64,000 nt of DNA from NCBI GenBank assembly GCA_965220215.1, contig OZ244809.1, forward strand, positions 666,580-730,579, in the 5' to 3' direction. The position numbers and the translations under genes were made by a program. This document shows, one piece after another, positions 8,079-60,143 of the stretch. Source of the DNA: Dehalococcoidia bacterium. Lineage in GTDB: Bacteria > Chloroflexota > Dehalococcoidia > SHYD01. The stretch's first letter is position 1. Each line of letters begins with the position of its first letter. Below the pieces are notes generated by a model that did no database searches, was not told the DNA's origin, and was given only the letters and a program-made list of their open reading frames with translations.

Positions 8079-8117
8079 GCGGGCAGCCGCTGTTGGCATT
8101 AGTGCAGGCAGTCCGCC

Positions 8118-9287: not shown

Positions 9288-9360
9288 AGAGCTGATTGCC
9301 CCTCTACCTGGCCGATGCTAGGATACGGATACGACCTCGTTTCGTAAGAGAAGAGCAGCT

Positions 9361-10518: not shown

Positions 10519-10520
10519 CC

Positions 10521-11636: not shown

Positions 11637-11640
11637 AGCC

Positions 11641-13447: not shown

Positions 13448-13521
13448 CGGCGCGCCGTTCCTATTGAGAGCGACTGCTGTGCTACACTGGCGGCGGTATT
13501 CTCTCTAGCGCAAACATACAG

Positions 13522-14085
13522 ATGACGCAACAAACCTCTCCCCTGCCCCAGGCTCCAAACTTCTGTCTCCGACACCCGGACACCGAGAGCAACCTGCGCT
13601 GCAGCAAGTGCGATTCCTACATCTGCCCGCGCTGCCTCGTCATGACCCCTGTGGGCGCCCGCTGTCCGGACTGCGCCCACGTGCAGGCGCTACCGCAGTT
13701 TGAGGTCAAGCCCATAGAGTATGCCAGGGGAACCGGTGCAGCAGCAGGCGTAGCGCTGGTGGCCGGCGCGATCTGGGCCATCCTCCCCTTTGGCAATTTC
13801 CTAGGCTTTCTCTTCGGTATTGGCGCGGGATTTGCTATTAGTGAAGGCATGAACGCGGCCACCAACCGGCGCCAGAGCACAGGACTCAAAATCATTGCCG
13901 CGTGTGGCGTGGTCCTAACTTTCCTTTTCTCTCAAGTAATCGGCATCATCCTGGCGTTCGGCATGCCTTCTAATCCAGAAGTGATCCCAGTGCTCTTTAT
14001 TGCCGCATTCCAAGGGATGATGAGTCCCTTTACCTTGATCATCGTCGGCCTTGGCGCATTCTTCGCGGTCACCAGGATAGGGTAG
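13522..14085 (+). CDS. Hypothetical membrane protein with N-terminal B-box-like zinc ribbon
   Basis: CLRHPDTESNLRCSKCDSYICPRCLV..CPDCAH is followed by several hydrophobic helices. Confidence 0.5.
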   Translation: MTQQTSPLPQAPNFCLRHPDTESNLRCSKCDSYICPRCLVMTPVGARCPDCAHVQALPQFEVKPIEYARGTGAAAGVALVAGAIWAILPFGNFLGFLFGIGAGFAISEGMNAATNRRQSTGLKIIAACGVVLTFLFSQVIGIILAFGMPSNPEVIPVLFIAAFQGMMSPFTLIIVGLGAFFAVTRIG

Positions 14086-14094
14086 GCGTTAACT

Positions 14095-15093: not shown

Positions 15094-15125
15094 ACAGGGA
15101 CGGGTAAACCCGCCCCTGTTTCTAA
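15093..15125. terminator. Bidirectional intrinsic terminator between the convergent heptose-7-phosphate kinase gene and rpoC
   Basis: Hairpin ACAGGGACGGG-TAAA-CCCGCCCCTGT followed by TTTCT. It lies between two convergent stop codons. Confidence 0.6.
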
Positions 15126-15149
15126 CTAACTTCAGCTTGTAGCGGCAGC

Positions 15150-19565
<4,416 letters not shown>

Positions 19566-19573
19566 GTGCGCTC

Positions 19574-23368
<3,795 letters not shown>

Positions 23369-35111: not shown

Positions 35112-36227
35112 TTACAGCTCCTTGAGGGCGGCCAGCACTGCGTCCGTGTGCTCCGGCTTGCCCGTGCTGATGCGAATTGCGTTGGGTAAGTAGGGGCTAT
35201 CCACGCGTTTGATGAAGATACCGCGCCGCTCCAGCTCATTCTTTAGCGCAGCGGCGTCCCGGCCATCAACCTTGCACAGAAGAAAGTTCGCTTCCGAGGG
35301 AATGGGTTCTAGGTAGGAGATGCCCTGCAGCGCCTGGAACATACGGCCACGTTCCTGCACCATCAACCCCACTCGCTTCAGGAGGAGGTCGCGCTCTTCA
35401 AGGGATACCTGAGCGGCTACCAAACCCGCTACATTCACATTGTACGGCGGCTTGATCAGGTCGATGAGGGAGACTAAGGCGGGCGTAAGCGCGCCATAGC
35501 CCACCCGAAGGCCGGCCAAACCCGCCCACTTGGAGAAGGTGCGCAGCACCACCAAGTTCTCATGCTCCCGCACCAACGGCGCGTAGGAGGGGGCTGCGCT
35601 GAACTCCTGGTAGGCCTCGTCCACCACCACCAGTATTCCAGTGTCCAGGAGCACATCTAGCTCATCCGAGCGCAGCGGGTTGCCCGTAGGATTATTTGGA
35701 GACGCCAGGAAGATAATTTTGCTGTTCGGTTGCTTTGCCGCCGCAAGCAGCGGCTCCATGTCCAGAGTAAAATCCGCCTTGCGAGGCACGTCCACCACGC
35801 GACCGCCTACTACTTGAGTGGTGAAAGGGTACATACCGAAGGTGGGGCTGCAGGTGAGGATGGCATCGCCGGGCTCCACCAGCAGCCGGGCGAGCAGGTC
35901 GATTAGCTCGTCGGAGCCGCTGCCCACGGCTATCTCCTCAGCCGCGACGCCAAGGTAGCCTGCTAGGCCCAGGCGCAGCTCCCGCTGGCTGGGGTCGGGA
36001 TAGATGTGATACGCATCGTATTGCTGGAGCGCCGCCAGGGCGCGTGGCGCAGGGCCGTAGGGATTCTCATTCCCGTCCAGCTTAATGACCCCCTCCTGAG
36101 ACAGTCCGCCCTCCTTGCTCAGGATGTCCGTGGGGACTATGGGCACGTAGGGCGTCAGTTCCTGATAGTGCTTGCGGATGGCGGAGCGGAGGCGCTCGCT
36201 CTTGATGCCTTGGGGTGTCTCGGTCAC
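35112..36227 (-). CDS. hisC: Histidinol-phosphate aminotransferase
   Basis: Class II aminotransferase; LDGNENPYGP, the PLP-lysine region and the his-operon context. Confidence 0.9.
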   Translation of the reverse strand: MTETPQGIKSERLRSAIRKHYQELTPYVPIVPTDILSKEGGLSQEGVIKLDGNENPYGPAPRALAALQQYDAYHIYPDPSQRELRLGLAGYLGVAAEEIAVGSGSDELIDLLARLLVEPGDAILTCSPTFGMYPFTTQVVGGRVVDVPRKADFTLDMEPLLAAAKQPNSKIIFLASPNNPTGNPLRSDELDVLLDTGILVVVDEAYQEFSAAPSYAPLVREHENLVVLRTFSKWAGLAGLRVGYGALTPALVSLIDLIKPPYNVNVAGLVAAQVSLEERDLLLKRVGLMVQERGRMFQALQGISYLEPIPSEANFLLCKVDGRDAAALKNELERRGIFIKRVDSPYLPNAIRISTGKPEHTDAVLAALKEL

Positions 36228-37564
36228 TGGGCCCTAATCTCCTGCGCGGAGAGTTGCTGGTGCATCTCTACAGCCCTGGCATGGGCGGTCAGACCCTCCG
36301 CGCGAGCAATGGTGGCCGCCGCGGGAGCCAGAGCCGACGAGTCCGCGGCGTCCAGCCCAACCACGCTGGTCACCTTCACAAAGTCATCCGCGTGCAGGGG
36401 CGAACTGAAGCGCGCCGTCGCTCCGGTGGGCATGACGTGACTTGGCCCCGCCACGTAGTCGCCTAGGGCAGCGGAGGTGGCCGAGCCCACAAAGAGCGCG
36501 CCCGCGTGGCGTACGCGGTCGGTCAGCGACCAGGGGTCGCGAGTAAGTATAGAGAGGTGTTCCGGCGCTAGGATGTTAGAGAGGTCTGCGCCCTGGCTCA
36601 GGGTCTCGACAAGGATAAACAGCCCGTTGTTGTTCAACGCGCCGCGGATGACGTCGGAGCGTTCGAGCTCGGCAAGCTGGCGCTCAACCTCCTGCTCCAC
36701 GGTGTTGAGCAACCGTTCTGAGTCGGTGATGAAGATAGCAGAGGCTAGCTCGTCGTGCTCTGCCTGGGCCAGCAGGTCAGCGGCGCAGAGACGGGGATCG
36801 GCGGAGTCATCGGCCAACACAGCCCCTTCGGTGGGACCGTGGAGGCCGTCTATGCCCACAGTGCCGTAGACCGCACGCTTCGCCAACACCACAAAGAGGT
36901 TGCCCGGCCCGCAGATCTTGTCCACCCGGGGGATGCTCTCCGTGCCGTAGGCCAGCGCGCCAATGGCCTGGGCGCCGCCCACTTTGAATACTCTATCCAC
37001 GCCAGCAATCTTTGCCGCGGCCAGCACCAGAGAGCTGGCGTTGCCCTCACGGTCCGGCGGCGTCACCGCTATTATCTCGGGCACGGATGCCACCTTGGCG
37101 GGGACCGCAGTCATGAGCACGGTGGAGGGATAGGCGGCGCGACCACCCGGCACATAGATGCCGACGCGGTCTAAGGGCCGCACAAGCTGACCCCAGCCGG
37201 CGGGCTTGTCGATCCAGGTCTTGGGCAAATGCGCCTCGTGGAAGCGGCGAATGCGCTCGGCGGCCAGCTCCAGCGCAGCTAACACATCGGGCGGCGCGGC
37301 CTGATACGCCTGCGTGATCTCCTTATACGAGACTTCGAACTCAGGGAGAGTGACGCCATCAATGCGGGCAGTATACTCACGCAACGCAGCATCGCCGCGG
37401 GTCCGCACGTACGCCAGAATCTCCGCTACGGCTTCCTGGGGCGTAATCGGCCGCCCAAACAGTTCATTTAGCCGCGCGAGCACTGCTGCTGAGGGGGCAA
37501 GCTCTTGGAGTTGCCGCTTCTCTAGGAATTCGCGAGATGCTTTGTAGCCACGAATAAACTTCAC
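36224..37564 (-). CDS. hisD: Histidinol dehydrogenase
   Basis: 446 aa in the HisD family. It overlaps hisC by 4 nt. Confidence 0.9.
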   Translation of the reverse strand: MKFIRGYKASREFLEKRQLQELAPSAAVLARLNELFGRPITPQEAVAEILAYVRTRGDAALREYTARIDGVTLPEFEVSYKEITQAYQAAPPDVLAALELAAERIRRFHEAHLPKTWIDKPAGWGQLVRPLDRVGIYVPGGRAAYPSTVLMTAVPAKVASVPEIIAVTPPDREGNASSLVLAAAKIAGVDRVFKVGGAQAIGALAYGTESIPRVDKICGPGNLFVVLAKRAVYGTVGIDGLHGPTEGAVLADDSADPRLCAADLLAQAEHDELASAIFITDSERLLNTVEQEVERQLAELERSDVIRGALNNNGLFILVETLSQGADLSNILAPEHLSILTRDPWSLTDRVRHAGALFVGSATSAALGDYVAGPSHVMPTGATARFSSPLHADDFVKVTSVVGLDAADSSALAPAAATIARAEGLTAHARAVEMHQQLSAQEIRAQ

Positions 37565-37659
37565 ACTAACCTCTGTTCACATTGAGCACATGATTGCTGT
37601 GCTTCACGTTTCCTTGAGAGAGCTTACGGAAGGGGCTGGCCTTAGTGCGCGCCGTTTGG

Positions 37660-38673
37660 TCACACCCCGTTAGTGGACGCCAGCACCCGGCTTAGCTGCT
37701 CAAAGGACTCGGCCTGCTGCTCAAACACATAGTTGGGCGGAAACACGGTCACGCTGGCGGCCCCAATGCTCCTGAGGTGTTGCACCGCCTGCAACAACTC
37801 GGGCTTACGCACTACCACCGTCACGGCGTACCAATCCTGCTCCTCGCCGTACCGGCTATACACCTTGGAGACCGTGGGCCCACGCATGCCCGCGGCCGCG
37901 GGATGGCTGATGACGCCCTGGGCCACCGACTCCGGAGTGTCGCCCCGGATGTTGGCCGTGATGCTGAAATAGTCCCTGGCCCGCAGGTTGGCCTCGATCA
38001 TCTCAAGCATGCGCTTGGTGGTCTCCAGCGCCACGCTGTTCTGACGCAATGCCTCTAAGTTGCCAATGAGGCAAGACTGTGACGTGAGAATGTTGCCATC
38101 GGTCAGGGTTTTGAGGCCGTTCTCTCGCAGCGTGGTGCCGCTGGAGGTGAGGTCGGCGATGACATCGGCAAAGCCCATGGTCGGCGCGACCTCGATGGCC
38201 CCCGTCGACGCCACCAGGTTGAAGTAGTTCAGCTCTTTACGCAGCAGAAACTCCCGCACCAACCGGGGGTACTTTGTGGCGACCCGCAGCTCCTGGCCCC
38301 GGTCCCGCAGCTCCTCAGAAACCTCCACCATGTCCGCCATGGAGGAGACGTCTATCCAGGTCTCCGGCACCGCAAGTACTAGATAGCATCCCCCATACTC
38401 CAGGTCTTCCATCAGTACATGGGTATCGCTGCCTTCGTGCAGGTGCTCCCTCACAATGTCCAGTCCGGTGATACCCAGGTCTACGCTGCCTTCCTCCACC
38501 TTGGCGGGGATGTCCGCCGCGCGCTGGAAGAGGACGGTGGTGTTGGGCAGCGCCGGGATGGCGGCCATGTACTGGCGCTCGTTGGGGCGGTTGACGCTCA
38601 GCCCGCACGCCCGCAGGAACGCAAGCGTGGGCTCTTCTAGTTCGCCCTTGCTGGGCAACGCTACACGTAACAT
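37660..38673 (-). CDS. hisG: ATP phosphoribosyltransferase, long form with C-terminal regulatory domain
   Basis: MLRVALPSKGELEEPTLAFLRACGL...DLGITGLD; the C-terminal ~90 aa resemble the HisG regulatory domain. Confidence 0.9.
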   Translation of the reverse strand: MLRVALPSKGELEEPTLAFLRACGLSVNRPNERQYMAAIPALPNTTVLFQRAADIPAKVEEGSVDLGITGLDIVREHLHEGSDTHVLMEDLEYGGCYLVLAVPETWIDVSSMADMVEVSEELRDRGQELRVATKYPRLVREFLLRKELNYFNLVASTGAIEVAPTMGFADVIADLTSSGTTLRENGLKTLTDGNILTSQSCLIGNLEALRQNSVALETTKRMLEMIEANLRARDYFSITANIRGDTPESVAQGVISHPAAAGMRGPTVSKVYSRYGEEQDWYAVTVVVRKPELLQAVQHLRSIGAASVTVFPPNYVFEQQAESFEQLSRVLASTNGV

Positions 38674-38680
38674 AGCTTGC

Positions 38681-40117
38681 TCACGCCACCGATAGCTCTT
38701 GCAGGCGCCCCGCGCCTACAACGACTACACGCCCGATGCCCGCCTGCTGGCAGTAACTCAACCGCTCTGCCTCTGATCGAAGCTCCACTTCCAACACTGC
38801 GGCCACGCCTTGTGCCCGCAGTTGCTCCGCTTGTCGTACGGCCTCGGCAAAGTCGCTGTCCCGCTCTGCCGCTACCAGGACGCCGGCGGGTTCGCCGGAC
38901 GCTGCGGCGCCTCCGGGCGCGCTCGCCAGGAGGTCCTCCAGGGTGTAGGCAAAGCCCAGGGCTGGCACGCTGGCTGGCCCGCCTAGGGCCGGCACTAATT
39001 CGTCGTAGCGGCCGCCCCCGCCCACGGGGCGGGAAGCATCGCCTGCGTATAGCTCAAAGACAATGCCGGTGTAATAGCCCAGGGGCCGGATAAGCCCCAG
39101 GTCCAGCTCAATAGAGATGCCGTCCAGGTGGAAGGCGTCCAGGGTAGTAATGACCGCCTCCAATTCCTGCAGCAGCGGGAAGGCTACGCCGTAGCGCGAT
39201 GCAATAGCTGCGCCCGCCTGTAGCGCGTTGTTTGGCGACTCCCGTACCTGGCTCAACTCCTGCACCAGTCCTAGCGCCCGCTCGATGTCCTGAGGCTGGT
39301 CCGTAGCCTGATACTTAGCCCGGAAGCGGCTGATGATCTCCTCCGGCCCGCGCCGGCCGGTGGGACGGGTTGCGCCCGCCTGCACAAACCATTCCAACAA
39401 GCCCAGCGTATCCTCCATCGCCGCGCCGGCAGCGCTCCTTGCTTCCGCTTGCTCTTCAGGAAGCTCTGCCTCGTCGGGAGACGCGGTCTGAAGCGCGCGC
39501 AGCCCTTCACGTAACTGCTCCACTCCATCTTGGCTGCTGCGCACCAGCGCAAGGTGGTTCGCGAGATAAAGCTGGGAACGCTCCGAGAGCCCGATGCCTG
39601 CCAACAGGCTGGGCAACAGGCCCGCGTGGCCCAGCACCAGCCGCGGTGACGGCGCCCCAATGGCGCGCATCCCCTGGCAGGCCAGAGCCAGCAACTCCGC
39701 GTCGGCGCGGGGCGTGCCCCCACCGATGAGCTCGGCTCCTAGCTGGGTGAACTGGCGCAGCTGCCCTTGACGAGTATCGCCGTCCCGGAAGACAGGGCCG
39801 CAGTACTGCCAGCGTAGCGGTAGGGACAGCTCCTGAGCGTGGTTGATATAGCTGCGGATGATCGAGCCGGTGAACTCCGGACGCAGGCAAAGGCGCTCGC
39901 CCTCTTGGTCGGTGAAGGTGAACATGAGGCCCGCCACCTGGCTACCCAGCTTGCGGAGATAGAGGTCGACGCGCTCCAGCACCGGCACCTCGACCTCTTG
40001 ATAGCCGTAGGAGGCCAGCAAGGCCTGTAGCCGTTGCTGCGCCTGCTGCACCAGAGAGAGCCCTAGCCGGCGCCGGTCTTGTGTGCCTGGAAGCGGCGTT
40101 TGCGATCGATCCGTCAC
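38681..40117 (-). CDS. hisZ: Histidyl-tRNA synthetase-like protein (HisZ/HisS family) at the head of the his operon
   Basis: Class II aaRS HisRS-type motifs LRPEFTGSIIRSY, GPVFRDGDTRQGQLRQFTQLGAEL and GGGGRYDEL, with a GTG start. The 478-aa length and a C-terminal alpha/beta segment suggest an anticodon-binding-like domain may be retained. Confidence 0.7.
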   Translation of the reverse strand: MTDRSQTPLPGTQDRRRLGLSLVQQAQQRLQALLASYGYQEVEVPVLERVDLYLRKLGSQVAGLMFTFTDQEGERLCLRPEFTGSIIRSYINHAQELSLPLRWQYCGPVFRDGDTRQGQLRQFTQLGAELIGGGTPRADAELLALACQGMRAIGAPSPRLVLGHAGLLPSLLAGIGLSERSQLYLANHLALVRSSQDGVEQLREGLRALQTASPDEAELPEEQAEARSAAGAAMEDTLGLLEWFVQAGATRPTGRRGPEEIISRFRAKYQATDQPQDIERALGLVQELSQVRESPNNALQAGAAIASRYGVAFPLLQELEAVITTLDAFHLDGISIELDLGLIRPLGYYTGIVFELYAGDASRPVGGGGRYDELVPALGGPASVPALGFAYTLEDLLASAPGGAAASGEPAGVLVAAERDSDFAEAVRQAEQLRAQGVAAVLEVELRSEAERLSYCQQAGIGRVVVVGAGRLQELSVA

Positions 40118-40251
40118 GTTATCCTGTTCTTAGTTACTTAGTTTTATTGTACCCCAGGCAGGCATACCTAGCCACTCATAAGAGAACGTAGAAAGGCCGC
40201 TTCTTGTACATTGCCCGCCACAGCGCAGCTTTGGTATCCTTCCCAGTTGTA

Positions 40252-40326
40252 AGTGCTGTAGCACAGCCGGGAGAGCATTTGTCTGGCAGACAAGGGTCAG
40301 GGATTCGAGTCCCATCTGCTCCACCA
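40252..40326 (+). pseudogene. Degenerate tRNA-Ala-like remnant (duplicate of the tRNA at 41624-41699 including about 45 bp of upstream sequence)
   Basis: About 85% identical to the intact tRNA-Ala. It has acceptor and D-stem mismatches (AGUG versus GGGG at the 5' end, A:A in the D stem) and a 1-nt deletion. The shared upstream block GTACATTGCCCGCCAC[A/C]GCGC[A/G]GCTTTG.. occurs at 40206 and 41578. Confidence 0.6.
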
Positions 40327-40345
40327 AACCTCCGCTAGGGAAAAA

Positions 40346-41185
40346 ATGACAAACATCCATGGCACAGGACCCGTTTTCACTTCCCAACTCTTTCCGCAAC
40401 TCCTCGACAATCTGCTCGGTGTGCTGGAGTCGCTTAGGCCTGGGGAGTGGTATATGCCGACTCCGTGTCCTGGATGGTCAACTCACGACTTGGTTGCGCA
40501 TATTCTCGGGGGCGAGGTTGGACAGTTGTCTATGGAACGCGATGGGTTTAATGCTTCTTTGGTCACCGCGGACAACTGGGATGATTTCGTCAGGGGACTG
40601 AACGACTTAAACGAGCAATGGGTTACAGCTCTCAGGAGGGTGAGTCCTCAACTATTGATCGACCTTCTGAGATCAACAGGAGACCAGGTGAACGGGTACC
40701 TTGAGTCGCTTGACCCTTACACTGTCGGTCCTATAGTGAGCTGGGCAAGCCCTGATCCCGTTCCTATGTGGCTGCACATCGCTCGCGAATATACGGAGCG
40801 CTGGCACCACCAGCAACAGATCCGGGAAACGGTAGGCAGACCGCTGCTAACCGACCCAGGCTGGTTTGCCCCGGTCCTGGCGACCTTCGTGTACGGCCTG
40901 CCACGCGCTTACTCTGAGGTCGACGCCCCCACAGGCACAAGGATCAGGGTCACTATATCGGGCCCTTCGGGCGGGACCTGGACGGTATCCCGCTCCCAAG
41001 CTGAATGGGTGCTGCTTTACGGTGGGACTGGGAAAGCTGCCGCCGAAATCACGCTCGATGAGGCTGACGCTTGGAAGCTGTTCACCAAGAGCATCGCCAG
41101 AAACATCGTAGAGCCGCGGGTTATACTCGAAGGAGATCGAGAGCTTGGATTGAAGGCTCTGGACACAGTATCGATCATCGCATAG
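40346..41185 (+). CDS. DinB/YfiT-like (mycothiol-dependent maleylpyruvate isomerase N-terminal domain family) protein
   Basis: WSTHDLVAHILGGEV...His-rich DinB_2-type N-terminal pattern. GC is lower than the core genome. It sits between the two tRNA-Ala copies. Confidence 0.65.
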   Translation: MTNIHGTGPVFTSQLFPQLLDNLLGVLESLRPGEWYMPTPCPGWSTHDLVAHILGGEVGQLSMERDGFNASLVTADNWDDFVRGLNDLNEQWVTALRRVSPQLLIDLLRSTGDQVNGYLESLDPYTVGPIVSWASPDPVPMWLHIAREYTERWHHQQQIRETVGRPLLTDPGWFAPVLATFVYGLPRAYSEVDAPTGTRIRVTISGPSGGTWTVSRSQAEWVLLYGGTGKAAAEITLDEADAWKLFTKSIARNIVEPRVILEGDRELGLKALDTVSIIA

Positions 41186-41623
41186 GAGGGATAAGCATAT
41201 CCTTTATCACCGTCCTGCATGCCCTGGCAGATTCACAGAGAGAGTACCAACTCGAAAGTGGTACTGTGTACAGTCCACGATGGCCCACCACTTCCAAGCT
41301 GAAGCGGTAGATGTTTTCCTGGGCGGGACTGAGGGCCAAGGCTCCCGCCAAGTCCCAGTTCTCCCTCCTCTCACTGTTCGGGTGGTCTCTCGGCTGGGAA
41401 CAGGGCAATAGACGCCGGCTAAACCGCTGACACGTCTAGGGGTGGGTGCTGCAGTACCGCTGCTCAGACCGATATCTACGGTGGTCAAAGAGGCTAATTG
41501 CGCCGTAGCATCGCAATGCAGCAAGTTCCTAGGCTACACATTAGCTAGGTGCGGCGTCAGACTCATCCCATGAACACGTACATTGCCCGCCACCGCGCGG
41601 CTTTGCTATACTTATTGCTTATT

Positions 41624-41699
41624 GGGGCTGTAGCTCAGCTGGGAGAGCATTTGTCTGGCAGACAAAGGGTCAGGGGTTCGAGTCCCCTCAGCTCCACCA
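41624..41699 (+). tRNA. tRNA-Ala (anticodon GGC)
   Basis: Folded by hand: 7-bp acceptor stem with the G3:U70 Ala identity pair, anticodon loop CUGGCAG, T-loop UUCGAGU and an encoded CCA. Confidence 0.9.
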
Positions 41700-41702
41700 A
41701 AT

Positions 41703-41817
41703 TAGACTAAACCGAAAACCTAACACTACGGTTTGTTCTTTACCTGTAATGAGGCCCAAGTCCGTGCCTTTGCGTGCCTTTGATCGATGGCCCTCCGTGT
41801 TCCTTGCAGGCAGGCTC
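41703..41817. repeat. About 115-bp imperfect direct repeat, left copy (partner at 45046-45161)
   Basis: About 85% identity. The shared core is CACCTGTAATGAGGC[C/G]CAAGTCCGTGCCTTTGCGTGCCTTT. Confidence 0.7.
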
Positions 41818-42013
41818 TTGGGATGCACACCATCAACTGAACCGTCTCACTACACCTGCCAACAGGCTATGTGAAAGCAATCGTCTCTTCGGGCGTAGCT
41901 ATGGATTTCTATGCCCATCTCGAAACAGGCTTCGTCCGGGCCAAGCGCCTGAATGGACCTGGCACAGGGTGGACGAACTCTTGTGCGACGCAGCGGCAGC
42001 AAAGGAGCAGGTC

Positions 42014-42889
42014 ATGCGAGCAGTGATTGCAAAGCGTAAGCGGATGGTGCCCACGGTCGCATCCATAAGCGTGGTGAGCCTCGCGCTCATCGTGAGTGTC
42101 ATCTGGTTCCTTGGGACCCCGGGGCAGGCTCACGCGTGTAAGTGTGCGGAACCCGGTTCTCCTTCCGAAGAGCTGGGGAAGTTTGCAGCAGTCTTCGCAG
42201 GGAGAGTCGTCTCGATTGAACACTCCTATGACCCCAATGCAGCGTCTGTCTCCCCCGGGGACCGCACCACGGTTGGCTTTGAGGTCAGCGCCGTGTGGAA
42301 GGGGGCTGTTTATGAAAGCATGTATGTAACCACGCCACCAACTGGCGGGAGTTGCGGTTTTGCCTTCATCGAAGGAGGGGAGTACATCGTCTATGGTCAC
42401 GACAGCAACTATGATGACGGCGGCTATACCGTTGGCATATGCAGTCGCACGGCCCTCCTTGGACAAGCGCAAGCTGATCTCGACGCGCTAGGGGAGGGCA
42501 GTGCTCCTCAAGCCGGGACGGGCGGACCAGCGCCTGAACAACCACAGGACGGGGAGGGCAGTGCTCCTCAAACCGAGGTGGGCGGACCTGCACCTGAACA
42601 ACCACAGGACGGGGAGGGCAGTGCTCCTCAAGCCGAGGTGGGCGGACCAACGCTTGAACAACCACAGGACGGGGAGGGCAGTGCTCCTCAAGCCGAGGTG
42701 GGCGAACCAGCGCCTGAACAACCACAGGACGGGGAGGGCAGTGCTCCTCAAGCCGAGGTGGGCGGACCAGCGCCTGAACAACCACAGGATACGGTTGCAG
42801 GTAGGGCGTGGATAATCATTCTGGCAGTTGCTGCGGCGGTTGTTGTAGTGAGCGGGAGCGTAGTGTACGCACGTGTCAGGCGTCGGTAG
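42014..42889 (+). CDS. Secreted TIMP/NTR-like domain protein with five tandem 20-aa Pro/Glu/Gln-rich repeats and a C-terminal transmembrane anchor
   Basis: The signal peptide ends AHA, then the mature N-terminus CKCAEP matches the TIMP CxC start. Further TIMP-like blocks are AAVFAGRVV, VWKGAV, YVTTPPTGGSCGF and GEYIVYGH. The start at ATG 42014 has an AAGGAG Shine-Dalgarno sequence. Confidence 0.6.
   Translation: MRAVIAKRKRMVPTVASISVVSLALIVSVIWFLGTPGQAHACKCAEPGSPSEELGKFAAVFAGRVVSIEHSYDPNAASVSPGDRTTVGFEVSAVWKGAVYESMYVTTPPTGGSCGFAFIEGGEYIVYGHDSNYDDGGYTVGICSRTALLGQAQADLDALGEGSAPQAGTGGPAPEQPQDGEGSAPQTEVGGPAPEQPQDGEGSAPQAEVGGPTLEQPQDGEGSAPQAEVGEPAPEQPQDGEGSAPQAEVGGPAPEQPQDTVAGRAWIIILAVAAAVVVVSGSVVYARVRRR
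42491..42787 (+). repeat. Five near-perfect 60-bp tandem repeats (in-frame, encoding DGEGSAPQAEVGGPAPEQPQ)
   Basis: GGGGAGGGCAGTGCTCCTCAAGCCGAGGTGGGCGGACCAGCGCCTGAACAACCACAGGAC occurs five times with 1-3 substitutions each. Confidence 0.9.
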
Positions 42890-43216
42890 GTTCACAGAGC
42901 CCCCAGCCACATCTCGAACACGGTACCACCTACCCCACGTAAGCCACTAAACTGGACAAAATCAAGAACCTTCATTCTTTGGAATCAATAAACACGGAAA
43001 ACTCCGATACTCATGGGCGGTCGGTTTGGGTCCATTCAAGCCGGGTAGGATTTTTAGACAATAGCGTGCGCCCCAAAGAGGCTGGCGGAGGAGGGTCGCC
43101 GCGGGGACGCGTATGGTATGCGACGGACGGATCGAAATTCCGGTTTCGTCCTCCAATGGGCTGAGCCGAACCGCCCCGGCCGGATGGATCGCAATGTCCC
43201 CCGGCAGCCGTCCCCG

Positions 43217-43465
43217 TCAACTGAACCACTCCAGCTCGTAGCGCCCGGGCTCCCCGTCGATCTCCCCGTAGGTGGCAAGGTCAAACATTGGGAGTTCATT
43301 GGCATCAGGCATCCACACGAACGGTAAGGGCACGTCTCCGAAATCCCTGCGAGCGCACCCGTGCTCCTTGAGCCACGACTCAGAGACCCACGACGGCATC
43401 ACGTACTGGCCACCCTTGACACGCTGGACAACTGGCGTCGGCTGGTGGTGCGGTACGATTGGCAT
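43217..43465 (-). CDS. Hypothetical protein (possible gene remnant)
   Basis: 82-aa ORF in a 600-bp stretch with no clean long ORF. I recognise no family. Confidence 0.25.
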   Translation of the reverse strand: MPIVPHHQPTPVVQRVKGGQYVMPSWVSESWLKEHGCARRDFGDVPLPFVWMPDANELPMFDLATYGEIDGEPGRYELEWFS

Positions 43466-43586
43466 ACCGACGTCTACATCGCATTCCCGACTATCGCCTG
43501 CTTCATGACCACACTGTCAAAGATTTTGGGATAGGTTCATGACTCTCGTTTTCTAAGACCTAACGCTTTTAGCAGGCGCGCGCTTT

Positions 43587-44246
43587 TCAGCGTCGCCTGG
43601 CTAAACTTGCTAAGCCCTTTATGGTAGATGGCAATTCCCTAAACGTAGCGACCTTGGCAGTTGCCTTGGACAAATCGTGAGCTGCAGTGAACTCGTTCGC
43701 AACCACGATGCAGTCAATACCCGCCGCTATTGCCGACTTCAACCCTCTCGCCGAGTCTTCAATAACCACCGTTTCAGCGGCAGTAGCACCAAAGCGTTGG
43801 AGTCCTCTCAAATAGGGCTCGGGATGTGGTTTAGCTCGCTCGTAATCCTCCCGAGTTAAATAGAATTCCATATGATCCAGGATGGATCGCCTTTCGTGTA
43901 TTAAGGTGAAATCAGGTGGTTTGGAGGTAGTAATTATGCCCATCCTGTACTCACTTGCGAGTACGTCTAGCGTTTCCAAGACACCCTCGATTTCGATGTC
44001 TTCGGTGATCAGGTATTCCTGGTAGTACCGGTTTCTTAGTTCTCGGCCACGATTAATTTCAGATTCGGATATTCCTGAAACTCGTGCCGCCTCCCACGCG
44101 GAAACCCCATTGGCCATATTCACCAAATATGCGTCTCGTGGGAGATCAATTCCGAGAGATGCCAGCGCTCGTTTGTTTGCCAGGTAATACCAATGTTCTG
44201 TTTCGACTAAAACCCCATCATGGTCAAAGAGAATGTATTTTTTCAC
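43587..44246 (-). CDS. HAD-superfamily hydrolase (phosphatase/beta-phosphoglucomutase-like)
   Basis: MKKYILFDHDGVLVETE has the HAD motif I DxDG. Downstream motifs are IITTS and EDSARGLKSAIAAGIDCI. GC is markedly lower, about 45-50%. Confidence 0.75.
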   Translation of the reverse strand: MKKYILFDHDGVLVETEHWYYLANKRALASLGIDLPRDAYLVNMANGVSAWEAARVSGISESEINRGRELRNRYYQEYLITEDIEIEGVLETLDVLASEYRMGIITTSKPPDFTLIHERRSILDHMEFYLTREDYERAKPHPEPYLRGLQRFGATAAETVVIEDSARGLKSAIAAGIDCIVVANEFTAAHDLSKATAKVATFRELPSTIKGLASLARRR

Positions 44247-44351
44247 TTCTGTGCTCGATTCAATTTCGGCTTAACGATCAAGCTAACTTGACGAGCTCCT
44301 TGCGCTAAGCCGAAAGTCGCCTTGTTCACTGAATGAAGAAGCCATACCCCA

Positions 44352-44786
44352 TCACATCGGCTCAGCAACGAACACCGGTATCCTCCGCTCCGTCCGGCTC
44401 TGATACTCCTCGTAGGGCGGGAACGCTGCCACTGCCAGTTCCCACAACCGCGCTCTTTCCTCTGCATCCACAACTTCGCGGACCCGCATCGCGCACACCT
44501 CGGTCTCGTCCCGAATCTCTACGTTACCGTCCGCCCGGAGATTGTGCACCCATTCCGGGTTCTTCGGCGCACCGCCTCTAGATCCCACCAAGATGTACTT
44601 GTTCCCTTCCTTCACCCGCATCAGCGGCGTCTTTCGGATTGCCCCGGTCTGGTTTCCCTTATTCGTCACAATGATTACGGGCAGTCCGGTATCGCGCAGC
44701 GTCGTCCCTTCTTTGCCCTCACTCCCCTCGTAGAGCTCCACCTGCTCGCGAACCCAATCCATGGTCGACGGTATGTACTCTGACAT
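44352..44786 (-). CDS. Deazaflavin (F420)-dependent nitroreductase family protein (DDN/DUF385)
   Basis: PVIIVTNKGNQTGAIRKTPLMRVKEGNKYILVGSRGGAPKNPEWVHNLRADGNVEI is the DDN-family split-barrel signature. Confidence 0.7.
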   Translation of the reverse strand: MSEYIPSTMDWVREQVELYEGSEGKEGTTLRDTGLPVIIVTNKGNQTGAIRKTPLMRVKEGNKYILVGSRGGAPKNPEWVHNLRADGNVEIRDETEVCAMRVREVVDAEERARLWELAVAAFPPYEEYQSRTERRIPVFVAEPM

Positions 44787-45045
44787 GTTTCCGTTCTGCC
44801 TCCCAATTAACAGTTGCTTGCCACCTAATCATAGTGCGAGTCTCTGCTAACCACCAATACCACCACGGCTTCCCAACTGCACGCTTACCCTTGTTTCTCT
44901 GTCCATTGCCACTACAAGACGTGAATCCAAAAAGCGGAGTTGACAGCATGCCAATAGAGCCTCTCAATCATAAGCCATACCTTGACTTACCCCCGAAGAC
45001 TTGGGCAGAACAGCCGCGCCTGACATTGGCTCCCCAGACTAGCGC

Positions 45046-45161
45046 CTAGACTAAGTTAAGAACCTAAACGCTGCGGTTCGTTCTTCACCTGTAATGAGGC
45101 GCAAGTCCGTGCCTTTGCGTGCCTTTTATCGAAGGCCCTCTGTGCACCGTGCAAGCAGGCT
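45046..45161. repeat. About 115-bp imperfect direct repeat, right copy (partner at 41703-41817)
   Basis: See the left copy. The repeat-encoded pseudo-ORF starts MPLIDGPPC and MPFIEGPLC are artefacts of this repeat. Confidence 0.7.
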
Positions 45162-45721
45162 CGACGCTCACGATCTCGCCAGTCCCCCAGTTCTTAACTT
45201 ACGTTGTCCCACGCAAACCTCGTGACAGCAGGATAGGTGTCCCGTTCACTTATGCACTCCTGGTCGAGTGTTCAGACACAAGCGGTCTAGTTCCTTCCCG
45301 GCGGGCGGTGCTGCGGAATATGCCGGCGACTCCATGCCTTCAGGGTTGATACAAGAAGGCACCAAGCCGCCTTCCGCTTTACCAGATCGAGGTCCTACTC
45401 GCTCAACGGACTGCGTTCCAGCAAGGCTTATTGTTCCGCAACCTGTCAGCACTTGGCCGGATTGAACAGTTTGCGCTCGGCGGCGGAGAGCCATACCCTG
45501 TCTGGAACCGACGCGTGAGCGCGCTATATCGTCGCTCCGCCTGGGGTGCTATAATTTAATCATCAACTCAAAGATAGTATTGCCTACCGTAGAGTTAGGC
45601 TCACTAAATACCTTCAGTGCGGAGAAGAGCAGGTGTGTAATCAGAGCCTCACCCTTAGCAGCGGGGTACAGCCCGGCACGTAAGGCCGAGAGGCCTCCTC
45701 CTGCATAGGAGAAGACGAGAC

Positions 45722-45750
45722 GGGCAGGGCAAAGACCCTGCCTTTTGTGT
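45722..45750 (+). terminator. Intrinsic-terminator-like hairpin plus U-tract 22 nt upstream of the 45772 start codon
   Basis: GGCAGGG-CAAAGA-CCCTGCC followed by TTTTGTGT. A second hairpin, AGGCCGAGAGGCCT, lies just upstream. Confidence 0.5.
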
Positions 45751-45771
45751 GCGCAGTCTGGGAGTTGTGAG

Positions 45772-46518
45772 ATGGCAACCATAAGGGAACAGATTATCGA
45801 ACGGGCATTAGAGCTTCTTAGAAGCCATCCCGACGGCATCCGCTACGCAGAACTCGTCCGAAAAGTGGTTGAGTCCGACCCATTATTCAAAAGCGCTTAT
45901 GTAGACTCAAACGTATGGAACTTACACATGCAGTTCCCCGAGAAGGTTTATAAGCCGGCAAGAGGCTTGTATAGACTGACCGAATATCGCGATCAAGGGA
46001 CTGACCAACTTAAGCCAGAACTTGTTCCTAAACCCCCACTGAAGATAAAGGAAGAGGATTTCTACGGGCCGTTCGCAGACTGGCTAGTGAACGATCTGGA
46101 AGACTGTACAAAGGCGATTCCGCTAGGCGGGGGCAAGTTCAAAGATAAATGGGGAACACCAGACGTAATTGGCAAGCGGGAGTCCAGACCAAGCGATATT
46201 CTGCAAGCGCCTACAGAAATTGTATCGGCGGAAATTAAGCTGGATACCCAGCAATTGGTAACCGCATTCGGACAAGCCTGTGCTTATCGTCTGTTTAGCC
46301 ATAAATCGTATCTAGTTGTGCCTAAAGATTCGCCCCAAGACGAAGTAGCTAGATTGGATGCGTTATGCCAAGTCTTCGGCATCGGATTGATCTTGTTTGA
46401 TGCGTCTTCCCCAGAAGACCCTGGTTTTGACATCCTTGTTCGCCCTCGTAAACAAGACCCAGAGATGTTTTACACAAACAAGTACTTGAAGCTCATTGAA
46501 AAAGAGATGTTTTCCTAG
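45772..46518 (+). CDS. Hypothetical low-GC protein: N-terminal winged-helix-like domain plus C-terminal PD-(D/E)xK-like nuclease pattern
   Basis: GC is about 48%. The N-terminus HPDGIRYAELVRKV..KPARGLYRLTE reads as a winged-helix wing. The C-terminus has DWLVNDLED ... GTPDVIGK ... IVSAEIKLD, which I read as E ... D ... ExK. Confidence 0.5.
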   Translation: MATIREQIIERALELLRSHPDGIRYAELVRKVVESDPLFKSAYVDSNVWNLHMQFPEKVYKPARGLYRLTEYRDQGTDQLKPELVPKPPLKIKEEDFYGPFADWLVNDLEDCTKAIPLGGGKFKDKWGTPDVIGKRESRPSDILQAPTEIVSAEIKLDTQQLVTAFGQACAYRLFSHKSYLVVPKDSPQDEVARLDALCQVFGIGLILFDASSPEDPGFDILVRPRKQDPEMFYTNKYLKLIEKEMFS

Positions 46519-46530
46519 TCGGAGTAACTC

Positions 46531-48987
46531 ATGGCAGAACGGTACAACCCCCAAGAGATAGAACCCAAGTGGCAGGAACGCTGGGAAGCGGAGGGCCTCT
46601 ATCGCCTCAACCCAAATCCCAGCAAACCCAAGTGGTATGCCCTCACCATGTTTCCCTACACCTCGGGCGACCTCCACTGCGGCCACTGGTACGCCATGGG
46701 CCCCTCCGACGTGCAGGCCCGCTACAAGCGCATGAAGGGCTACGACGTCTTCTTCCCGGTGGGGTTTGACGCGTTCGGGCTGCCGGCGGAGAACGCCGCC
46801 ATCTCGCGCGGCATCCACCCACAGAAGTGGACGCTGGACAACGTAGTGCGCATGCGGGGCCAGCTCCGTAGCATCGGCGCGATGTTCGACTGGGACCAGG
46901 AGATTATCACGTGCCTGCCAGAGTACTATCAGTGGAACCAATGGCTCTTCCTGCAGTTTTACAAAAAGGGCTTGGCCTATCGCGCCAAGGCTGCCGCCAA
47001 CTGGTGTCCTAGCTGCCAGACGGTGCTGGCCAACGAACAGGTAGCGGCGGACGGCACCTGCGAGCGCTGCCATACCGTCGTGACCAAGCGGGACCTGGAG
47101 CAGTGGTTCTTCCGCATCACCCAGTACGCGGACGAGCTGCTGGAGTTTGGCGATCTGGAGTGGCCCGAGCGGGTTAAGACCATGCAGACCAACTGGATCG
47201 GCAAGAGCTACGGCACCGAGATGACCTTCCCTCTGGAACGGCCAGACCTGCCTGAGAAGGAGATCCGCGTCTTCACCACCCGGCCGGACACCATCTACGG
47301 AGCGACCTTCATGGTGCTGGCCCCGGAGCATCCCCTGGTGGCGCAGCTCACCACCGCCGACAAGCAGTCAGAGGTGGACGCCTATCTGGAGGAGACCCGC
47401 CTCCGATCAGATATAGAGCGGCTCTCCACCGTGGGGGAAAAGAGCGGTGTCTTCATTGGCGCGTACTGCGTAAACCGCTTTACCGGGCAGCGCATCCCCA
47501 TATTCATTGCAGACTACGTGTTGATGCACTACGGCACCGGCGCGGTCATGGCCGTGCCCGCCCACGATACCCGTGACTTCGCCTTCGCGCAGAAGTACAG
47601 CCTGCCCATCGTGACCGTCATCGCGCCGCCGGGCTACCAGGGCGAGCCGCTGACCGAGGCGTACGTTGATCCCGGCGTCATGGTGAACTCCGGCGACTTC
47701 AACGGCCTCTCCAGCACCGAGTTTATGGACAAGGTGAAAGACTATACGGAGGCACAGGGCTGGGGCAGCCGCAAGGTGTCCTACCGGCTGCGGGACTGGC
47801 TCATCTCCCGCCAGCGATACTGGGGCACGCCCATCCCTATCATCTACTGCGACCAGTGCGGCATCGTGCCACTGCCGGATGACCAGCTCCCCGTGTTACT
47901 GCCGGAGGACGCGGAGTTCAAGCCCACGGGCGAGTCGCCGCTGAAGTACCACCAGGGCTTCTTCAACACGACCTGCCCCGACTGCGGTCGTCCCGCCACC
48001 CGTGAGACCGACACCATGGACACCTTTGTCGATTCCAGCTGGTATCAGATGCGCTACCTGAGCCCCGGCTATGATCAAGGACCCTTCGACCCAGCGGTGG
48101 CGGCAGGCTGGCATCCGGTGGACCAGTACACCGGCGGCGCAGAGCACGCTACGATGCACTTGCTCTACGCCCGCTTCTTCCACAAAGTGATACGAGACCT
48201 GGGGCTGGTAGACACGCCGGAGCCCTACCTGCGCCTGTTCAACCAAGGGCAGATCCTAGGGACAGACGGCCAGCGCATGAGCAAGTCCCGGGGCAACGTA
48301 GTTGCGCCCGATGAAAATGTCTCCAGGTACGGCACAGATACCTTCCGCGCCTACCTCATGTTCCTAGGCCCTTGGGAGCAGGGCGGCCCTTACAACACCG
48401 ACGGCATCAACGGCATCACGCGCTGGGTAGGCCGCGCGTGGACACTGGTGCTGGACACCTGGACTGCTTCACGCTCCGGCACGCCGGGCGAGACGCCATT
48501 GAAGGAGCTGCAGCGTGTCACCCACCAGACCATCCGCCGCGTGGATGAAGACCTGGCCGATTTCCGCTTCAACACCATGCTGGCTGCGCTCATGGAGTTC
48601 ACCAACTATCTGACCAAGCCGGAGACCCAGGCGCTCAGAGGCACACCGGAATGGCGCGCCGCCCTGGAATCGCTCATCCTAATGATCGCGCCCAGTACAC
48701 CTCACGTGGCAGAGGAGCTGTGGGAGCGGACCGGCCACCGTTTCAGCGTGCACCAGCAGCCGTTCCCTACCTGGGACCCCGCGCTGGTGACCAACGAAGA
48801 GATCACCCTGGTGGTGCAGGTGAACGGCAAGGTGCGGGACAAGCTCACCGTAGCCACCGGCGTGAACGAGGCCCAGGCCCGGGAGCTGGCCCTGGCATCG
48901 GACAAAGTGCAGTCGCAGCTAGACGGCAAGCAGGTGGCGCAGGTGATCTACGTGCCCGGCCGTCTTGTGAACGTGGTCGTGCGATAA
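46531..48987 (+). CDS. leuS: Leucyl-tRNA synthetase
   Basis: 818 aa with the HIGH-type motif (PYTSGDLHCGHWYAMG), KMSKS (RMSKSRGN) and the CP1 editing region. Confidence 0.95.
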   Translation: MAERYNPQEIEPKWQERWEAEGLYRLNPNPSKPKWYALTMFPYTSGDLHCGHWYAMGPSDVQARYKRMKGYDVFFPVGFDAFGLPAENAAISRGIHPQKWTLDNVVRMRGQLRSIGAMFDWDQEIITCLPEYYQWNQWLFLQFYKKGLAYRAKAAANWCPSCQTVLANEQVAADGTCERCHTVVTKRDLEQWFFRITQYADELLEFGDLEWPERVKTMQTNWIGKSYGTEMTFPLERPDLPEKEIRVFTTRPDTIYGATFMVLAPEHPLVAQLTTADKQSEVDAYLEETRLRSDIERLSTVGEKSGVFIGAYCVNRFTGQRIPIFIADYVLMHYGTGAVMAVPAHDTRDFAFAQKYSLPIVTVIAPPGYQGEPLTEAYVDPGVMVNSGDFNGLSSTEFMDKVKDYTEAQGWGSRKVSYRLRDWLISRQRYWGTPIPIIYCDQCGIVPLPDDQLPVLLPEDAEFKPTGESPLKYHQGFFNTTCPDCGRPATRETDTMDTFVDSSWYQMRYLSPGYDQGPFDPAVAAGWHPVDQYTGGAEHATMHLLYARFFHKVIRDLGLVDTPEPYLRLFNQGQILGTDGQRMSKSRGNVVAPDENVSRYGTDTFRAYLMFLGPWEQGGPYNTDGINGITRWVGRAWTLVLDTWTASRSGTPGETPLKELQRVTHQTIRRVDEDLADFRFNTMLAALMEFTNYLTKPETQALRGTPEWRAALESLILMIAPSTPHVAEELWERTGHRFSVHQQPFPTWDPALVTNEEITLVVQVNGKVRDKLTVATGVNEAQARELALASDKVQSQLDGKQVAQVIYVPGRLVNVVVR

Positions 48988-58655: not shown

Positions 58656-60143
58656 ATGACACAACGCAACGAAGAATACTATCGCCAGCGATTGTCCAAA
58701 CTGGAGCGCCTGCGCAGCGCCGGCGTCGATCCTTATCCGGCCCGCTTCAAGCGCACCCACACCGCGCAGGAAGCCACTGCGCGCTTTGAGCAGCTCCACG
58801 GCGATACGCCCGGCGCCCACGGCGAAGAAGAAGTGACCGCGGCAGGACGCCTGACCGCCCAGCGCATCATGGGCAAGGCCAGCTTCATGGACCTCAACGA
58901 TGGCTCCGGCAAGCTCCAGCTCTACTTCCGCTCCGACCACCTGAGCCCGGAGCAGTACGAGGCACTGGAGCACCTGGACTTGGGAGACTTTCTGGGCGCA
59001 ACCGGTACCCTCTTCCGCACCCGCACCGGCCAGATCAGCCTGGAGGTGCATAGCTACACCGTTCTGGCCAAGGCGTTGCAGCCGCCACCGGAGAAGTGGC
59101 ACGGCCTGACCGACGTGGAGACGCGCTACCGCCACCGCTATCTTGACCTCATGTCCAGCGAGGAGGTGCGCGCCACCTTTGTGGCACGCGCCCGTCTGGT
59201 GGCGGCCATGCGCCGCTTCCTCAACGACCGCGGCTTCATCGAAGTGGAGACGCCGGTGCTGTTACCTCACGCCGGCGGGGCAGCCGCCCGGCCCTTCGCG
59301 ACCCACCACAACGCCTTGGACCAGGACTTCTTCCTACGCGTTGCCACCGAGCTGCACTTGAAGCGACTCATCGTCGGCGGCTATGAGAAGGTCTACGAGA
59401 TTGGACGCATCTTCCGCAACGAGGGCATCTCCACCAAACACAACCCCGAATTTTCCACGATGGAGTGCTATGAAGCCTACGCCGACTATCAGGACATGAT
59501 GGCGTTGGTGGAGCAGATGGCGGCGTTCATGGCCCAGGAGACCGTGGGCGCGCTGGAGATCCCCTTCAAGGAGCAGACCATCTCCTTAGCGCCGCCGTGG
59601 CAACGCTACACCTTTGAGGAGGTGCTCCGGGAGCACACCGGCATCAGCTTCCTGGACTACCCGGACGCGGCCTCCCTCTACCAGGCCATCAAGGAGAAGG
59701 GGCTACGGGTGCCGCCCGGTCTCGGCTACGGCAAGCTAGTGGACGAACTCTTTTCCGAATACGCAGAGTCGCACCTGATCCAGCCCACCTTTCTGCTGGA
59801 CTACCCCATTGAGCTATCCCCCCTAGCCAAGCAGAAGGCTGACGACCCGCGGCTGGTGGAGCGGTTCGAAGGCTTTATTGGCGGGATGGAGATAGCCAAC
59901 GCGTTCAGCGAGTTGAACGACCCCGAGGAGCAGCGCCGCCGCTTCGGTCAGCAGGCCACCGCCCGCGCGGAGGGCGACGAAGAAGCCGAGCTTCCTGATG
60001 AGGACTTCCTCTTTGCCCTAGAGCACGGCATGCCCCCTACGGGCGGACTGGGCATGGGTATTGACCGCCTAGCCATGATCTTCACGAACAATGCCTCCAT
60101 CCGGGAGGTCATCCTCTTCCCCCAGCTCCGAAGCAAGGAGTAG
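58656..60143 (+). CDS. lysS: Lysyl-tRNA synthetase, class II
   Basis: OB-fold N-terminus, class II motifs (FRNEG, GGLGMGIDRL). Confidence 0.95.
   Translation: MTQRNEEYYRQRLSKLERLRSAGVDPYPARFKRTHTAQEATARFEQLHGDTPGAHGEEEVTAAGRLTAQRIMGKASFMDLNDGSGKLQLYFRSDHLSPEQYEALEHLDLGDFLGATGTLFRTRTGQISLEVHSYTVLAKALQPPPEKWHGLTDVETRYRHRYLDLMSSEEVRATFVARARLVAAMRRFLNDRGFIEVETPVLLPHAGGAAARPFATHHNALDQDFFLRVATELHLKRLIVGGYEKVYEIGRIFRNEGISTKHNPEFSTMECYEAYADYQDMMALVEQMAAFMAQETVGALEIPFKEQTISLAPPWQRYTFEEVLREHTGISFLDYPDAASLYQAIKEKGLRVPPGLGYGKLVDELFSEYAESHLIQPTFLLDYPIELSPLAKQKADDPRLVERFEGFIGGMEIANAFSELNDPEEQRRRFGQQATARAEGDEEAELPDEDFLFALEHGMPPTGGLGMGIDRLAMIFTNNASIREVILFPQLRSKE

Follow-up and report, generated by a model that had tools for sequence, protein, structure and literature searches.

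Between hisZ and leuS of a Dehalococcoidia bacterium lies a 6.4-kb gap that we regard as probably (at a rough probability of 0.6) a flexible islet anchored on a tRNA-Ala(GGC) gene, built by integrative traffic and now reduced to remnants. The gap is on contig OZ244809.1, within a window of 64,000 nucleotides (nt), by which we mean the whole stretch of DNA that was analysed; the nearest named relatives of the window are Dehalococcoidia/Chloroflexota metagenome-assembled genomes (MAGs). The original prediction, made from the letters of the window, had proposed serial site-specific integration at the tRNA gene. Since sister species have an empty site or real insertions at this position and strains vary, the locus is truly an integration hotspot, one that varies among strains and holds remnants lacking an integrase. 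To this extent the proposal stood; its reading of two repeat pairs as att-type flanks of serial elements was not supported.

We compared the window with two sets of loci. The conspecific set (L081, L082, L083 and L084) has LeuS proteins 98% identical to that of the window and flanks of 92-96% nt identity, and the sister-species set at leuS (L001, L085, L086, L089 and L091) has LeuS proteins 74-77% identical. Further loci were two tRNA-Ala(UGC) integrase sites (L087 and L088) and a tRNA-Lys site (L092/L093). Repeat searches took in the 64-kb window, the fetched loci and, for the exact repeat core, the JGI metagenomes and IMG/VR.

The gap is divided by three partial copies of one unit made of a promoter, a tRNA gene and a 115-nt flank: A, B (the complete copy) and C (the flank). 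The parts of these copies, with two further segments on which the comparison relies, are as follows.

40206-40251, + strand: promoter region of copy A, TTGCCC-18 nt-TATCCT with a weakened -10; aligns to 41578-41623
40252-40326, + strand: pseudo-tRNA-Ala, copy A (Rfam tRNA match 40252-40323; ARAGORN makes no call)
40327-40334, + strand: 3' flank of copy A, AAACCTCC, also in L083; strain-specific sequence starts just past it
41297-41577, + strand: arm of ~280 nt 5' of the working tRNA, common to strains with different cargo
41578-41623, + strand: promoter of copy B, the working tRNA, TTGCCC-18 nt-TATACT with a TG extension (promoter scan)
41624-41699, + strand: intact tRNA-Ala(GGC), copy B, the working gene (ARAGORN; Rfam tRNA 66.5 bits)
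41703-41817, + strand: 115-nt repeat copy 1, the 3' flank of the working tRNA
45047-45162, + strand: 115-nt repeat copy 2, which is copy C of the unit, flank only
45648-45752, + strand: leuS leader with two hairpins, ancestral tRNA-Ala-leuS sequence (alignment with L001, L085, L086, L089 and L091)

The original prediction had called an intact and a degenerate tRNA-Ala, and both calls were borne out. The intact gene keeps G3:U70, as read from the sequence. Copy A scores 31.4 bits, barely above the Rfam tRNA gathering score of 29; the cmscan alignment mispairs its acceptor stem, D-stem and T-stem, G3:U70 has become U:U by our own reading, and a 1-nt deletion leaves AAG-GG against AAAGGG in the intact gene. 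This pseudo-tRNA is 88% identical to the intact gene and starts 135 nt from hisZ, the two copies being 1.37 kb apart. The shared upstream sequence, predicted at about 45 bp, aligns over 46 nt (40206-40251 and 41578-41623), so that promoter and tRNA together form a pair of 84.7% identity over 124 nt (E = 1e-34). The -10 element TGCTATACT is kept 5' of tRNA-Ala(GGC) in L001, L086, L089 and L091. Likewise, the imperfect repeat predicted at ~115 bp and about 85% identity proved to be a pair of 84.5% identity over 116 nt (E = 1e-31), with a start-to-start spacing of 3345. Divergence is thus equal in both pairs. A corresponds to the promoter and tRNA half of B, and C to its flank half, and the two halves are adjacent and non-overlapping: A ends CCAAA, and C opens with TAGACTAA, which in B comes after CCAAAT.

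Sister species point to the ancestral form of the site. In L091 (LeuS 76%), hisZ is followed by 264 nt, tRNA-Ala(GGC), 250 nt and leuS, a gap of 588 nt that represents an empty site, and in L001 and L086 tRNA-Ala(GGC) lies 160-260 nt upstream of leuS. The ancestral order is hisZ on the minus strand, ~0.2 kb, the promoter and tRNA-Ala on the plus strand, a ~0.2-kb leader and leuS on the plus strand. Because the sister-species gap is short and the window keeps the leader at 45648-45752, copy A occupies the ancestral position, with copy B and the arm being the additions. A relationship between the 115-nt repeat and the sister-species tRNA-leuS spacer was rejected, as no similarity was found; the spacer corresponds instead to the leader. 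Synteny of hisZ extends to L081, L083, L089 and L091. The his operon is inverted relative to tRNA-Ala/leuS in the window (35112-46531), L089 and L091 as compared with L001 (10001-16936), in which hisZ through hisB point toward the tRNA.

Other sister-lineage loci carry insertions at tRNA-Ala. Immediately upstream of leuS, L085 (LeuS 76%) has a phage-like element at least 10 kb long (1-9752) that encodes an integrase with Arm-DNA-bind_3, Phage_int_M and Phage_integrase domains (P4-type), a portal, an S78 protease, a capsid protein and a DUF5906 protein (primase-associated). This element ends in a 21-nt 3' fragment of tRNA-Ala(GGC), CGAGTCCCCTCAGCTCCACCA, 250 nt before leuS. The L087 and L088 integrases, 85-86% identical to that of L085, follow directly after tRNA-Ala(UGC), and the L087 element (9823-20196) has 21 nt, from the T-loop to the CCA, repeated exactly 10.3 kb apart. 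L089 has a tRNA, an open reading frame (ORF), ORF203, and a 34-nt 3' tRNA fragment with one mismatch, a remnant without an integrase. Together these loci establish that predicted P4-type tyrosine integrases insert ~10-kb phage-like elements at tRNA-Ala in sister lineages. The integration chemistry is seen in the sister lineages only, and we infer that it extends to the window. Williams reportedly set out in 2002 a sublocation scheme for P4-family integrase islands at tRNA genes. It fits L085 and L087, with the integrase beside the tRNA (L087) and a repeat that extends from the T-loop through the 3' CCA, and the window misses two canonical features of such islands, the integrase and a 3' tRNA fragment at the distal boundary. 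The features that the window does have in common with tRNA islands are adjacency to a tRNA gene, a presence/absence polymorphism with an empty site (L091) and deviating composition.

One interpretation of these data is that two elements integrated serially in the window by classical site-specific recombination, with the repeat pairs as their attL/attR. Integrase-bearing elements use the site in sister species, direct repeats bracket both segments and the cargo is compositionally foreign. In addition, the copy A flank AAACCTCC resembles the flank of the L089 att fragment, where the similar AAACCTTC trails the 34-nt tRNA piece, a match of 6/7 nt and thus weak evidence. The form of the scars fits less well, however: events in the lineage leave a short 3' fragment downstream (21 nt, exact, in L087; 34 nt in L089), whereas the extra copy in the window is full length, promoter-bearing and upstream. 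Only two matches to the 21-nt tRNA core occur in the window, in the intact gene and in the upstream pseudo-copy, with none 3' of the working gene. The 115-nt repeats are likewise devoid of tRNA sequence, no significant tRNA remnant precedes repeat 2, and the segment between B and C is a mosaic and not a single element. We consider classical serial integration unlikely. Two candidate fragments were set aside: a 16-nt stretch at 59505-59520 that matches the 3' end of the pseudo-tRNA exactly was treated as chance because it lies inside a 495-amino-acid (aa) ORF (58656-60143) without tRNA context, and GCTCC-CCA just 5' of repeat 2, a candidate tRNA 3' remnant, was rejected because 71% of shuffled sequences and 59% of windows from the genome scored as well.

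The cargo between A and B differs in every strain examined. This compartment holds a DinB gene in the window, peptidase S9 and ORF189 in L081, unrelated ORFs in L082 and L084, and ~180 nt in L083. Its left boundary falls ~8 nt past the copy A CCA in the window and L083; in L081 it lies inside copy A, at about nt 25. On the right the edge is ragged, homology beginning at ~41297-41303 with L082 and L084 and at 41380 with L081, and the arm (41297-41577) is missing from L083 and the sister species. L084 has a 1.5-kb strain-specific cassette (ORF264) between 70-nt, 94%-identical direct repeats (277-345 and 1814-1883), the repeated sequence being part of the arm (window 41343-41412); this is a third case at the locus of a cassette with long imperfect flanking repeats. 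A distant relative of the L081 peptidase S9 gene (2034-4052) is found in L087 at 1852-3897; the two share ~66% nt identity along 0.7 kb, and the relative lies 6 kb 5' of the tRNA-Ala(UGC) site that carries the integrase.

The window, L081, L082 and L084 have in common copy B, the two 115-nt repeats and a set of four genes. The original prediction took the same gene order and repeats in related genomes as a sign of an ancient fixed arrangement. Repeats and islet are present in three of the four other conspecific loci and absent from the sister species, so the B-C part is old and largely fixed in the species, and the sister species are without it. The intact tRNA is 100% identical in the same four loci. 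Copy A matches it at 53-88% (74% in L083, truncated in L081), and its sequence changes with the strain. Since copy A varies in this way while copy B is fully conserved, the copy at the ancestral position is unconstrained.

The L083 locus is heavily rearranged, and little is left in it of either 115-nt repeat. It has no intact tRNA-Ala(GGC), carrying only a full-length copy that is broken, with an 8-nt deletion and damage to the acceptor stem, and a short piece of the 3' end, at 6664-6785 and 6962-6992; either the species can do without the gene or the 15x assembly is in error at this point. L083 retains a tRNA 3' end joined to the initial 12 nt of repeat 1 (p = 3e-4, shuffling) and a 13-nt tRNA D-arm match just 5' of the decayed repeat 2 (p = 7e-4), and these fragments suggest that copy C formerly included tRNA sequence.

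The shared features of A and B, and the boundaries just described, also bear on an explanation without any mobile element, in which slippage or unequal crossing-over duplicated or triplicated the promoter-tRNA-flank unit locally, genes entered by illegitimate recombination and deletions followed. A and B share an anticodon stem (CATTTGTCTGGCAGACAA), unlike L001 and L086, and a promoter-distal motif (GTACATTGCCCGCCAC) that is not seen 5' of the sister-species tRNA; therefore the copies diverged within this lineage. The compartment boundaries are ragged, no recombinase gene is present, and L082 has lost ORF248, the gene between the leader and leuS, by a microhomology deletion. We rejected this absence as an empty site: because the last ~15 nt of ORF248 remain, L082 represents a deletion between GAGATG microhomologies. 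A purely local origin needs several extra deletions, however, to account for an A without flank and a C without tRNA. It also leaves unexplained the strain-specific sequence that starts ~8 nt past the copy A CCA, the integrase-borne elements at the same site in sister species and the recurrence of a cargo gene beside another tRNA gene. We give it a small chance, enough to keep it in consideration.

A third possibility is that the 115-nt repeats are not scars at all but selected functional sequence: a small RNA, a terminator module, a regulatory site or a REP-like element. Both copies are kept in four strains, where their core, CCTGTAATG.G.C.CAAGTCCGTGCCTTTG, hardly varies, and a 5-bp hairpin within the repeat (GAACC/GGTTC) accepts G-U changes. 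Predicted folding of the repeat was nevertheless no better than that of shuffled sequence on either strand (z -0.3 to 0.03), none of 29 predicted pairs had a compensatory change and Rfam gave no match even at E <= 1; on these results a structured RNA or known RNA family was rejected. The original prediction had allowed that the repeats might be a dispersed element. There are two copies in the 64-kb window and no others, copies in the fetched loci occur only at orthologous positions, and scans of the JGI metagenomes and IMG/VR with the exact core found no match, so the sequences searched, which did not extend to the whole genome of the species, offered no copies at unrelated loci. L083, moreover, has lost most of both copies. 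A selected function for the repeats is thus very improbable. The copies cluster by position, with orthologous identities of 82-99% and paralogous identities of 71-87%, and the duplication is therefore older than the strain split, though not by much.

Weighing these alternatives, we favor the islet of integrative remnants, which would have been built by the same kind of traffic as in the sister lineages. DNA entering at the tRNA 3' end would have brought its own copy of the tRNA locus, and hence the long, 85%-identical repeats. This could have occurred by either of two routes: the attP was situated inside a full tRNA gene, or a circle recombined through tRNA-locus homology (Campbell-type). Insertion would have left two full tRNA genes, of which the redundant one, copy A, decayed; deletion would later have removed the integrase genes and parts of the repeats; and the A-B cargo may since have been exchanged among strains by way of the conserved flanks. 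What is left in the window would now be immobile remnants.

Several observations weigh against this scenario. Neither the window nor the four conspecific loci has an integrase, excisionase or transposase, in line with the original prediction for the window: tblastn with the local P4-type tRNA-Ala integrase against the window and conspecific loci returned nothing better than E = 3.7, and the ORFs tested in the interval had no recombinase domain. An exact att-like core, the short and perfect kind for which the original prediction had proposed an alignment, did not emerge, the longest perfect match being 25 nt in each repeat pair. The lack of a significant tRNA remnant 5' of repeat 2 counts here as well, with tRNA similarity at shuffle fractions of 0.71-0.97 and the same outcome in L081, L082 and L084. 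The ragged right boundaries are easier to reconcile with deletion or illegitimate recombination than with an exact exchange between specific sites. We know of no described arrangement in which attP includes the promoter and 5' part of a tRNA, and the step that places attP in a full tRNA gene is drawn solely from the anatomy of the locus. The fetched L085 locus does not reach the attL (tRNA-proximal) end of its element. Finally, the conspecific loci are low-coverage assemblies (4x-18x per contig names) with frameshifted genes, and small differences among them, above all in L083, may be assembly errors.

A bolder version of the mechanism is speculative, and we think it improbable. Here, small integrative elements of this lineage would attach through an entire tRNA-Ala gene that has its own promoter. 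Every integration would bring in one more full tRNA gene, the host copy that it displaces would decay, and the resulting pseudo-tRNA, the one beside hisZ, would serve as a landing pad. Such a pad would retain the 21-nt core, spare the working tRNA and lend its promoter to the cargo (here DinB), and a P4-type tRNA-Ala integrase with its gene at another place in the genome would exchange the cargo in trans.

The genes of the interval and its borders are listed below, GC3 being the GC content at third codon positions.

38681-40117, - strand: hisZ, ATP phosphoribosyltransferase regulatory subunit, conserved left border (Pfam tRNA-synt_His 7e-60)
40346-41185, + strand: DinB/MDMPI-like gene, cargo between A and B (Pfam MDMPI_N 1.4e-14; TIGR03083 8.6e-19)
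42014-42889, + strand: NTR/TIMP-fold membrane-anchored protein (Foldseek), five 20-aa tandem repeats
43217-43465, - strand: ORF82, conserved 82-aa ORF (99-100% aa identity in L081, L082 and L084)
43587-44246, - strand: HAD-IA hydrolase, compositionally foreign (Pfam HAD_2 1.1e-27; GC 48.6%, GC3 0.49)
44352-44786, - strand: F420H2_quin_red (DDN family), deazaflavin-dependent nitroreductase (PF04075 5.7e-42; TIGR00026)
45772-46518, + strand: ORF248, low-GC, between leader and leuS (GC3 0.50)
46531-48987, + strand: leuS, conserved right border (98% identity to conspecific, 74-77% to sister-species proteins)

The predicted DinB/MDMPI, low-GC HAD and F420-type DDN genes were thus all supported by family matches. 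The DinB start codon lies 19 nt past the pseudo-tRNA, and the gene occurs in no other fetched locus. Four genes (NTR/TIMP-fold, ORF82, HAD and DDN) make up an older, mosaic set in the B-C compartment, and ORF248 is a fifth, outside it. GC3 is 0.49 for HAD, 0.50 for ORF248, 0.57 for the TIMP-like gene, 0.62 for DinB, 0.73 for DDN and 0.76 for ORF82, against 0.75 and 0.84 for the flanking core genes hisZ and leuS. DDN and ORF82 are therefore native-like in composition, and HAD, ORF248, the TIMP-like gene and DinB deviate. Because GC3 forms a mosaic, from 0.49 to 0.76, the B-C islet is not one element. The DDN gene is also present in L083. Searches with PADLOC and PHROGs gave no cargo match to defence or phage families. 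A 600-bp ORF-poor stretch, once thought to be a possible decayed gene, in fact holds the conserved ORF82, which had no match in family searches.

The TIMP-like label of the original prediction applies at the level of fold. The AlphaFold model has a core of pLDDT (predicted local distance difference test) 72-87, and the best Foldseek matches in the PDB were TIMP-2 (E = 2e-4, prob 1.0), N-TIMP-3 (TM 0.65), TIMP-1 and other NTR domains, identifying the gene product, on the predicted structure, as a TIMP/NTR-type OB fold. An N-terminal Cys-x-Cys follows the signal sequence, with C42 and C44 invariant in 34 homologs. Pfam and NCBIfam gave no match for the window protein (PF00965 was found in one homolog), and a metagenome scan of JGI contigs found no relatives. 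The tandem repeat family of the gene (D1) comprises five 60-nt units (20 aa, SAPQAEVGGPAPEQPQDGEG) at 42491-42789. Members of the family usually have 211 aa, and the L082 gene seems to have fewer repeat units than that of the window. A copy of 89% nt identity lies at 9550-10636 in L092/L093, 370 nt downstream of tRNA-Lys(UUU), with homology limited to the gene. Its position beside a second tRNA gene points to independent mobility of one cargo gene. The tRNA-Lys copy is on a different contig from the same sample as L084.

About 490 nt separate repeat 2 from the leuS leader. The leader of ~110 nt is at 16800-16915 in L001, 9795-9915 in L085, 9790-9900 in L086, 9232-9352 in L089 and 9800-9915 in L091. 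Its hairpins are invariant, CGGGC-N4-GCCCG and CCGGGCAGGG-N6/7-CCCTGCC followed by a T-run, and the second (45722-45743 plus the T-run) is terminator-like in a terminator scan. A promoter-like TGCTATAAT lies 5' of the leader at about 45545-45553. The leader had no Rfam match, and the six sequences had no compensatory changes; it could be an attenuator or riboregulator of leuS. Beyond it, ORF248 is only 83.5% identical at the aa level between the window and L081, against 98% for LeuS, and is fragmented in L083 and L084. L089 has a DUF433 and DUF5615 toxin-antitoxin-like pair at the same position, between leader and leuS. ORF248 had no family match, and its single-sequence structure prediction (mean pLDDT 36) was unusable. 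A motif resembling PD...ExK is visible in it by eye (TPDVIG...SAEIK) and would hint at a restriction-endonuclease-like fold.

The locus is a known type of genome plasticity, and only the form of its scars, with longer and odder repeats, is unusual. Pavlovic and colleagues reportedly described in 2004 cis-mobilizable elements and tandem accretion in the ICESt1/ICESt3 family. Elements of this cis-mobilizable type keep functional, near-identical att sites. The window resembles them in having integrase-less segments between direct repeats, at a site used by integrase-bearing relatives, but its repeats are 15% diverged and no trans-acting integrase was identified in the species, of which the window and the conspecific loci were searched.

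In the same bacterial class as the window, the tandem ssrA-specific islands of Dehalococcoides have ~20 bp repeats of the ssrA 3' end downstream and a serine integrase, DsiB (McMurdie et al. 2011, PMC3146451). Many of them are without an integration module and are read as cis-mobilizable or as fixed accretion remnants (PMC3146451). The window locus is of the same kind, with one small-RNA gene reused as a site and strain-specific cargo stacked there. It differs in that the target is tRNA-Ala(GGC), the sister-lineage integrases are P4-type tyrosine recombinases, and the repeats are 115-124 nt long and 85% identical, one of them a promoter-bearing full tRNA copy upstream.

The islands seeded by tycheposons in Prochlorococcus have partial tRNAs as flanking repeats (Hackl et al., bioRxiv 10.1101/2020.12.28.424599). 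They occupy conserved tRNA-adjacent positions where successive integrations push older elements inward, and they include phage-satellite-like and cargo-only forms with scattered degenerate remnants and partial tRNAs (bioRxiv 10.1101/2020.12.28.424599). A tRNA gene reused as a site, stacked strain-specific cargo and decayed remnants are common to both systems. The extra copies in the window, unlike those of Prochlorococcus, include an entire tRNA together with its promoter, and a repeat that consists purely of 3' flank, and no tycheposon hallmark genes were found in the window interval.

The finding is of modest practical value: in annotation and pangenome studies, the interval can be flagged as accessory DNA. 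The full upstream tRNA copy and the flank-only repeat would matter only if they are a true sign of a distinct integration mechanism. The P4-type integrase and its 21-nt tRNA-Ala core point to a defined integrase/att pair in Chloroflexota. The locus also provides a worked example of accessory genes (DinB/MDMPI, F420-dependent reductase, HAD phosphatase and TIMP-fold) shuffled among strains. It documents, for one uncultured Dehalococcoidia lineage, a specific place where genes are gained and lost, with empty, integrase-occupied and decayed states across relatives.

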